In this document: positions 1 to 1,385 of the stretch, piece after piece
Layout: each line of letters opens with the position of its first letter
Numbering within the stretch: position 1 is the first letter of the stretch
Virus record (IMG/VR): IMGVR_UViG_3300017912_002025
Span: 1 to 33,054 of that record
Length of the DNA stretch: 33,054 nucleotides
Source of the DNA: a virus
Lineage: Duplodnaviria > Caudoviricetes
Reading direction: 5' to 3' (one strand)
Position numbers and translations under genes: made by a program
Notes under the pieces: generated by a model
What the model was told of the DNA's origin: nothing
Database searches by the model: none
What the model saw: the letters and a program-made list of their open reading frames with translations, nothing else

Positions 1-135
1 TGGGGGCTGCTGCACGTGCAGTGGGAGAAGGATGGTCACCGGTTCGAGTACGAGCCGACGAGCGAGGATAACGGTGACGGCATGGATTACAAGTGGCCGG
101 ACCGCGAGTACATCGATGGGGAGTTGGTGGTATGA
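1..135 (+). CDS. 3' end of hypothetical protein (partial)
   Basis: Frame 1 is open from base 1 (WGLLHVQWEKDGHRFEYEP...GELVV) to TGA 133-135, overlapping the next ATG (ATGA). Confidence 0.65.
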   Translation, partial: WGLLHVQWEKDGHRFEYEPTSEDNGDGMDYKWPDREYIDGELVV

Positions 136-1385
136 CGCAGAAAAAACTCAGCCTGTCGGGCAGTAAGCTGACCCTTGGCGGTGTTGACGCCGGACAGATG
201 CGCGCGGGCGTCACAGGTGGCGCGCGCCGTACCGTTCAAGTTGAGGTTCGTCGCAAGCGCGCACCCGCCGCGCCACATCGAAGAGTCGAGCAGCCGCCGG
301 ATGTCCTGTCGAATGAGGAGCGTGTGCAGAGGATACGCGCACTTCAAGAGGGCATGAAGAAACCAGTAGAGATACCGGTGGATACGCCCCCGCCGAAGAA
401 GAAAGACCCTGTTCCGTGGACCGTGGACTCTCATCAAAAGCATCCTGAGACAGAGATGTGGCATGACCGTGTCGGGTGGGACAACCCGAAGTCAGAGAGT
501 CGGTTCCGTGTGGGCGAGAACATTACCAAAAAGGAAATTGCAATAAACAAGAAGATTGCGGCTGCTGACTGCAAGACCATTGAAGAGGCGTTGGGTTTGA
601 TTCCAAACCTGCGGACGGTGTCGAACAGCACAAGGCTCAGTGCCGACATGAACAGGCTGTTCGAGTACGCTCGGGGGGACACATGGAGCAAGCATGTGTT
701 CAACCAGAGTTTTGTTTCGAAGCGCCCTGATGTTCGAGGAGGGAAGTGGACGAGGCACATGCGCCCGATGGGTGCGAAGGTGCTGGTCCGGTTTCTGGTG
801 CATGTGGGTCCGGAGTTTTACATCGATGGTGACATCGATCTGCGAGAGTTGCGTAAGTACGCATCGAGTGCGGATGTTTTCGAGGAGCCGCCCGCCAGCA
901 ACGACAACAAGATTGTCCCGCAGCCGGAGTCAAAAGAGACCGAACGCACTGCTGTGGTGAAGCAGCGGACGTACCAGCAGAAGCTGCGGGCACACATGCT
1001 GTCGCTCAATCCTACTTGTCCATTCACGGGAGTTAAGAATCACCGCATGTTGTTTGTGAGTCACATTAAACCGAGCAGTCATTGCGGGCTGTACGAGATT
1101 GACGGAAAGACACTACAGGAAAAAGAAGACGCGGCGAATGTGTTGATGCTGACGCCCAATGCGGACTGGCTGTTTGATCAGGGCTACATCAGCTTCACCG
1201 ACGACGGCAAGCTGATGCGGAGCATAGAGATTCACGGTGACGAGTTCAAAAGACTGGGTCTTCAGCACGAAGCGAACATTGAACGTCTGTTGAATGGCCC
1301 TGTTGGAGAACGGCGTCGGGGGTACATGGAACACCACCGCAGATTTATATTTCGTGGACCGAAAAAGGAGAAGTGGGATGGATGA
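132..1385 (+). CDS. IF-2 N-terminal-like segment fused to C-terminal HNH (HNH_2-type) endonuclease
   Basis: ATG 132 with ATGA coupling to the upstream ORF. N-terminus KKLSLSGSKLTLG...RTVQVEVRRKR...LSNEERVQRIRALQEG. C-terminus CPFTG...SHIKP...NVLMLTPNADWLFDQGYISFTDDG. Confidence 0.75.
   Translation: MTQKKLSLSGSKLTLGGVDAGQMRAGVTGGARRTVQVEVRRKRAPAAPHRRVEQPPDVLSNEERVQRIRALQEGMKKPVEIPVDTPPPKKKDPVPWTVDSHQKHPETEMWHDRVGWDNPKSESRFRVGENITKKEIAINKKIAAADCKTIEEALGLIPNLRTVSNSTRLSADMNRLFEYARGDTWSKHVFNQSFVSKRPDVRGGKWTRHMRPMGAKVLVRFLVHVGPEFYIDGDIDLRELRKYASSADVFEEPPASNDNKIVPQPESKETERTAVVKQRTYQQKLRAHMLSLNPTCPFTGVKNHRMLFVSHIKPSSHCGLYEIDGKTLQEKEDAANVLMLTPNADWLFDQGYISFTDDGKLMRSIEIHGDEFKRLGLQHEANIERLLNGPVGERRRGYMEHHRRFIFRGPKKEKWDG

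Follow-up and report, generated by a model that had tools for sequence, protein, structure and literature searches.

The stretch of viral DNA analyzed here (33,054 nucleotides, hereafter the window) starts with a reading frame whose 5' end is open (1-135) and whose TGA stop overlaps the ATG of a gene on the plus strand (132..1385; ATGA at 132-135). This gene, identified from its translated open reading frame and Pfam matches, encodes a protein of 417 residues (P0001). The segment around its start (119..135, plus strand) shows in the sequence itself a GGGAG motif (119-123) that resembles a ribosome-binding site. The initial annotation of this DNA had described an IF-2-like N-terminus, a helix, a Pro/Lys linker, and a C-terminal nuclease, all of which are seen in the translation. 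It had also allowed for translation starting downstream of the IF2-like part; the GGAG at 120-123 and the overlap with the upstream stop instead support a start at 132.

Residues 4-50 (141..280, plus strand) are a recent tract of captured host infB, recognized by its nucleotide identity, its sharp ends, and the IF2_assoc profile. The tract holds the IF2_assoc strands KKLSLSG..KLTL and VQVEVRRKR, plus APAAPH. The IF2_assoc profile (PF08364), suggested earlier as a check on the first 80 residues, matches residues 11-43 above the gathering cut-off, with an E-value of 2.9e-5 for the whole protein and 9.6e-7 for residues 1-80. An older IF2-derived helix (residues 57-78; 300..365, plus strand) was identified by host comparison, alignment A4, and a structure model of P0001 where the helix spans residues 61-76. 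In the alphaproteobacterial IF2 N-terminus, it corresponds to the second of the conserved motifs. It is followed on the same strand by a Pro/Lys-rich linker predicted to be disordered (366..416; pLDDT <50 for residues 73-101), a family-specific middle domain (483..881; around residues 118-250) with weak likeness to MerR/excisionase-type winged-helix folds, and an HNH nuclease domain of the VcaM4I/TagI type (927..1355; residues 266-408), assigned from Pfam, structure match, and catalytic residues. The HNH_2 profile (PF13391), also put forward as a check, matches residues 296-355 (E-value 3.2e-10; 40.1 bits for a cut-off of 21). Searches with Pfam revealed in P0001 no GTPase domain, as anticipated, and neither IF2_N (PF04760) nor the C-terminal tRNA-binding domains, whereas the host protein has them. 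The possibility that P0001 is an IF2 was rejected since these domains are missing. In P0001, an IF2_assoc segment is fused to a middle domain that is new and to an HNH domain of the VcaM4I type. We found no report of an IF2/nuclease fusion in the titles and abstract starts of open-licence PubMed Central and bioRxiv articles, in line with the earlier remark that no described system of this architecture is known.

The nuclease part of P0001 (residues 266-408) matches VcaM4I (6yex) with an E-value of 1.9e-11, and the sequence likeness is confined to the HNH part. The best Foldseek matches are 6yex (E-value 1.4e-6) and 6ghs. Residues H311, N336, D345, and D349 correspond to H224, N241, D250, and D254 of VcaM4I, i.e., the catalytic histidine, the structural asparagine, and the two metal ligands. 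H311, N336, and D349 are kept in all 49 aligned sequences, and position 345 is an aspartate in 36 of them and an asparagine in 13. From these sequence matches, we classify P0001 as a predicted HNH_2 nuclease of the VcaM4I/TagI type. VcaM4I (EVE-HNH) and TagI (SRA-HNH) are modification-dependent type IV enzymes that have in common with P0001 the HNH domain, the catalytic set, and the plan of a sensor followed by HNH, and the layout of P0001 may work in the same way. Unlike them, P0001 is phage-borne, lies at a fixed early position, carries a host-derived IF2 motif, and lacks EVE or SRA; no Pfam match to such PUA-superfamily readers was found in the protein. The middle domain was modelled with confidence, mostly as helices. 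The isolated HNH domain of VcaM4I is a toxic non-specific DNase, and HNH domains of this type are regulated by their N-terminal parts. No counterpart of the auto-inhibitory linker helix of VcaM4I was found with confidence in P0001.

Other known systems resemble P0001 in fewer respects. The N6mA-dependent type IV enzymes HhiV4I and HtuIII (wH-HNH; PMC11037411) share with it a possible winged-helix beside the HNH domain, and one member of that group is virus-encoded. The middle domain of P0001 is weakly MerR/excisionase-like, and the abstract describing these enzymes shows no IF2 motif. The motif GANTC shows no depletion: the window has 118 copies for 115 expected. Free-standing phage HNH homing endonucleases are similar in being HNH-superfamily genes between phage genes. 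In contrast to them, the gene studied here has a fixed syntenic position, catalytic residues intact across deep branches, and a whole-gene dN/dS of 0.12-0.31, and its HNH_2 type is closer to restriction enzymes. These features fit a maintained phage function.

Positions 141-280 of the window are identical at 138 of 140 nucleotides to infB of the SAR116 genome G076 (46 of 47 residues; E-value 1e-63), with one synonymous and one non-synonymous difference. The likeness runs from the first KK codon to APAAPH and the flanks are not host-like: the tract has sharp ends, with host contigs continuing into host flanks beyond 141 and 280. In each of the five SAR116 genomes searched, the tract is the only match of the whole 33-kb window. 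Among genomes matching the N-terminus, 9 of 16 have titles with Puniceispirillaceae, Puniceispirillum, or SAR116, and the others are Alphaproteobacteria. When that SAR116 family was searched, 85 of 96 genomes had matches, almost all of them within infB-sized frames. Hence, the N-terminal 50 or so residues of the phage protein were copied from SAR116 infB, and the earlier proposal of a captured host infB 5' end is borne out. Compared with bacterial IF2 (alpha-isoform Domain I, IF2_assoc), the phage protein shares this tract and the second helix motif but is fused to a nuclease, and its motifs are either separated by a shorter linker or reordered. What is conserved in the alphaproteobacterial IF2 N-terminus (alignment A4) is the strands and the helix, and the captured tract falls on the stretch of the host infB 5' end that is conserved best. 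Between strands and helix, the host has a variable linker, which is shortened in the phage protein. The helix (residues 57-78) matches the best of 64 host helices at 15 of 22 residues and at just 43 of 66 nucleotides, which indicates that it is older than the tract. The captured tract makes SAR116 the probable host. In a SAR116 genome bin, a segment (G029:C17:2162-2780) matches at 70-72% part of the phage record G137; this could be a binned phage contig, a second hint at the host.

A fusion of this kind could be produced by the assembly of a phage contig with host infB, all the more since exact 31-mers are common to host and phage and both are present in the same runs. The initial annotation had named a chimeric join near 360-430 as something that would refute its reading. 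We looked for one and saw none: in a run that may be the source of the window, a single 10.5-kb contig with a depth of 83.5 spans 141-1600 without any difference and carries the phage alleles, while the host infB branch in the same run has a depth of 8.8. Contigs from two other studies show a related tract (8 differences) joined to the core, with the 75 nucleotides of the helix skipped, and diverged tracts occur in 25 clusters of related proteins. At the left junction (140/141), the covering contig has 30 letters on the right side, one below the bridging bar of the tool. The fusion is not a chimera, and we regard an assembly artefact as wholly implausible. A contig of run X14 shares the upstream gene and the start region and then continues with unrelated sequence from around 141, which points to other alleles in this slot; since it diverges just after the start codon region, alleles without the gene may exist. 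In the two RNA runs examined, host infB was found and no phage version of the tract was.

The window encodes helicases, a primase, a DNA polymerase A, and tail genes. Its polymerase is 47-54% identical to those of HTVC023P, HTVC027P, 023Pt_psg01, and DSL-LC04, the four best of 4878 records. The replication module has the order of that of HTVC023P: two hypothetical genes, primase, helicase, a small gene, and polymerase. On the basis of polymerase clade and gene order, we assign the window to the HTVC023P-type podophages, a group described as lytic and as the most abundant known group of marine phages (bioRxiv 10.1101/2019.12.14.876532). In 16 of the 20 loci compared, the nuclease gene is surrounded by small genes and located upstream of the SF2 helicase; three of the others end before the helicase and L017 has different neighbours. 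A gene of the GP88 family is found upstream in 7 loci. This fixed position, in a group of small genes that lies upstream of the replication module, suggests that the nuclease gene is an early gene. The tail cluster of the window contains paralogous tail-fibre-like pairs (24510-25589/28428-29528 and 25992-26483/26965-27498), with phrog_4492 and phrog_15750 matched twice each.

No tyrosine integrase was found in five phage records, one of them 97% complete, and the positive control was found in 14 of 14 cases. A search of the same five records for a T7-type RNA polymerase gave no match, nor did its positive control; the phage probably uses the host RNA polymerase. When ten gene-bearing records were summed (among them window positions 1-33054 and G137, G138, and G141-G147), several hexamers were entirely absent: CTGCAG (0 for 91 expected), GACGTC (0 for 61), CGGCCG (0 for 59), GGTACC (0 for 37), and CTTAAG (0 for 24). 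The first 30 kb of HTVC023P show no avoidance of CTGCAG, CAGCTG, or AACGTT. This avoidance suggests heavy restriction pressure in SAR116 hosts, which explains the missing hexamers as well as avoidance of self-cutting does; they are equally absent from records lacking the IF2 piece (hereafter the hook).

To place P0001 in its family, we used protein searches, which revealed 25 clusters (at 90% identity) related to it at 29-91% identity. A further 8 full-length clusters bring the family to 33. Both IF2 strands are kept in 25 of these, separated by a loop that varies in length through in-frame losses and gains. Among the remaining 8, one has the last strand only (clipped start), one has the helix and the first strand, and six are devoid of the IF2 piece, two of which look clipped. 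The helix motif is present in 11 of the 33 clusters. These counts of strands and helices rely on search patterns partly fitted by eye. In L005, the piece is missing at the DNA level. Its absence from six clusters and from L005 shows that it is dispensable.

The phage copies of the tract match best different SAR116 lineages: 91% identity for L018, 86% for L007 and L008, 79-86% for L025-L027, and 81% for L014. In a tree of 60 distinct host tracts of SAR116 and 8 phage tracts, the latter fall in four separate places; they require 4 changes on the tree, and the separation is enforced by starred branches. This tree leaves out the degenerate copies of L011 and L013, and also L002, which the extraction pattern did not pick up. 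Grouping the phage tracts in a single clade is rejected (log-likelihood 119 lower, p-AU 4.7e-67), and so is the grouping of the window tract with L007 and L008 alone (p 0.0016). For the four pairs of phage tracts with dS above 0.29, dN/dS is 0.11, 0.07, 0.11, and 0.19; the values of two close pairs, 0.55 and 0.18, rest on 5 and 3 differences and are uninformative. Part of the low dN/dS between phage tracts could be inherited from unsampled hosts. The separate placements and the low dN/dS show that the piece was taken repeatedly from different SAR116 lineages, with at least four placements, and kept as a protein under purifying selection. This recurrent recapture had escaped the initial annotation. 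In L002 and the window, the middle regions are identical at 435 of 467 nucleotides. The strand blocks of L002 differ at 10 of 42 and 9 of 39 nucleotides from both the window and the host, with one amino acid change in 27 codons. By this comparison, the protein of L002 was conserved as its DNA drifted, and the copy in the window has been renewed.

One may ask if the tract matters only as DNA, as a site of integration or recombination, or not at all, as a neutral passenger renewed by homology to the host. Two observations are expected under this explanation: the tract falls on the stretch of the infB 5' end with the highest conservation, the only place where recombination is easy, and lineages without the tract exist. 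However, synonymous changes dominate, indels preserve the reading frame and leave both strands intact, and the second IF2 motif persists at 15 of 22 residues with only 43 of 66 nucleotides. The tract is also part of a coding sequence whose genome position is fixed, in phages where we found no tyrosine integrase. We consider a DNA-level or neutral role of the tract quite improbable.

The arrangement of the protein varies across the family, with middle and HNH domains shuffled between lineages. In P0016, the hook is internal, behind a different N-terminal domain. In P0018 and P0020, the helix was relocated to a place before the HNH domain, and in P0069 it comes first. This independence of position fits what would be expected of a tether, judging from the domain orders. 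The initial annotation suggested a survey of other cargo domains behind the same N-terminus. Two scans of viral loci (9 of 9 and 11 of 11) gave this nuclease family exclusively, and of 75 short matches, 74 are truncated N-termini of host-type IF2 and one is a fragment of the nuclease family; no other cargo was found in these searches.

Which partner might such a tether have? A study of E. coli (PMC12297416) reports that IF2 Domain I binds NusA directly and pulls it down, that an AlphaFold 3 model puts residues 1-50 and two strands (57-90) of IF2 on the KH2/AR1 region of NusA, that cross-linkers at IF2 positions 13, 50, and 88 capture NusA, and that the nucleoid binding of IF2 is lost when the NusA C-terminus is deleted. 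Its authors add that the IF2 N-terminus and the NusA C-terminus are both not conserved, and that binding is short-lived. In a profile alignment, the captured segment corresponds to residues 57-90 of E. coli IF2 (aligned region 54-142, E-value 0.0028) and K88 to K42 of the phage protein. SAR116 NusA has a KH region and a helix-hairpin-helix (AR-like) C-terminus, and the NusA proteins of this clade are 80-95% identical to each other. The E. coli N1 region (1-50) is absent at the SAR116 IF2 N-terminus, and the score of the helix against E. coli residues 22-46 is non-significant (-0.4). This weak likeness to the last N1 helix hints at a permuted order of the NusA-contacting parts.

By analogy with E. 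coli, we tentatively favour the explanation that the IF2 piece tethers a predicted, likely early DNase to NusA on transcribing host RNA polymerase, at a level of confidence that stops short of an even chance. The hook would bind host NusA as its E. coli counterpart does; the HNH domains would dimerise and cut double-stranded DNA, as in VcaM4I; and the middle domain would bind DNA, and may add a preference for sequence or modification that spares the phage. Tethering to transcribing RNA polymerase would thereby lead to the cutting of transcribed host DNA early in infection. An existing infB-derived tract would be renewed by homologous recombination with host DNA during infection, so that the hook would follow the current host. 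According to a preprint (bioRxiv 10.64898/2026.02.08.704698), the N-terminal extensions of IF2 cannot be exchanged between structural types, and hence a host-matched hook would be favoured. The complete scenario, in which the nuclease is aimed by wearing an IF2 motif for NusA binding that is renewed from infB of whichever SAR116 lineage was infected, is possible and rather doubtful. The link to NusA is carried over from E. coli by homology, and the E. coli interface also uses residues 1-50. As the phage is probably dependent on host RNA polymerase, a NusA-tethered DNase needs a self-protection step, and none was found. Furthermore, given how similar the SAR116 NusA proteins are and how often the host-specific loop is deleted, renewal may be a neutral effect of homology.

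The initial annotation had proposed that the piece steers the nuclease to ribosomes or nascent transcripts, or acts as an IF2 mimic or decoy. A tether or mimic agrees with the conservation at the protein level, whereas the case for the ribosome as target is weaker. Still, the piece might tether the nuclease to another partner, such as 30S or initiation complexes or proteins of DNA repair or replication restart, and RNA or DNA would be cut there. Selection on the protein and modularity fit this explanation equally well. In a preprint (bioRxiv 10.64898/2026.06.26.734871), deletion of IF2 N1 slows 30S recruitment, and two others (bioRxiv) report that IF2 isoforms differing in their N-terminus act in double-strand-break repair and recombination. 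Yet, the former maps the stable 30S contact to the N2 domain, with N1 only speeding recruitment, and residues upstream of 294 are unresolved in its structures. The captured piece is not this N2 domain, and the PF04760 domain of host IF2 (residues 287-337) lies outside it. The solved relatives of this HNH type are DNases, and NusA is the only direct partner for which data on this segment were found. Another partner is thus unlikely, if still worth considering.

A tether to NusA can also be confronted with a role as decoy or switch, where the piece competes with IF2 for NusA and uncouples transcription from translation, or where NusA activates the nuclease, and the middle domain alone directs cutting. 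Family members without the piece do keep the middle and HNH domains and the catalytic residues, VcaM4I-type HNH domains are under the control of N-terminal parts, and E. coli reportedly adapts more slowly once the IF2-NusA contact is lost. However, a pure decoy need not be fused, and the 75 short matches contain no stand-alone phage peptide. The viral loci of both scans all belong to this nuclease family, and the piece is in frame with the nuclease across several different arrangements. We see such a role as improbable.

Whatever the mechanism, the 140-nucleotide tract allows uncultured phages of the HTVC023P type to be assigned to specific SAR116 lineages, and a phage gene repeatedly borrows a short motif for interaction from a host gene that is essential, instead of evolving a look-alike. 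Binding of the hook to NusA would open a new route to the shut-off of the host. It would also be natural evidence, outside E. coli, for the recently found link between IF2 and NusA; the two needed motifs would have been picked out by selection, marking the minimal NusA-binding parts of IF2. A hook on the host transcription machinery would be a new means by which a virus aims its attack. If the tract is indeed renewed, it would work as a barcode that identifies the host in a subgroup of this most abundant group of marine phages. A mimic updated from the host genome would be the counterpart in phages of guide acquisition, at the protein level.

Another phage protein engages NusA via a short unstructured segment: lambda N, which binds AR1 (PMC7171158). 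The target region on NusA would be common to lambda N and the phage hook. Unlike P0001, lambda N has no host gene as its source and carries no nuclease, and its role is to promote transcription of the phage. It contains (L229:138-539) a basic-flanked ILSL that resembles the first IF2 strand (KKLSLS, KPLSLS) by three letters only. This stretch presumably lies in the AR1-binding part of lambda N. Lambda N might mimic IF2, and a three-letter resemblance (LSL) proves nothing in this respect.

Several relatives of P0001 have other N-termini. In L010 (1939-2826), L012, L015, and L016, an unannotated domain of around 135 residues that starts with MAKYT replaces the hook and the middle domain, while the HNH domain and the genome position are unchanged; this N-terminal domain has no Pfam match. 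P0016 combines this type of domain with a more distant IF2-like piece. In L017-L023 and P0070, which lack the IF2 piece, the N-terminus is a charged helical stretch of around 40 residues for which no host source was found. The middle domain also exists as a stand-alone protein without nuclease (P0074, 168 residues). Finally, a change of lysine to asparagine in the last strand (VEVRRNR) is present in L014, L018, L025, and L026, and in P0017-P0021 and P0023. It is common to phage copies from two host clades, and its position matches the cross-link site K88 of E. coli. This shared change is possibly a case of convergent tuning or an old end of the tract.
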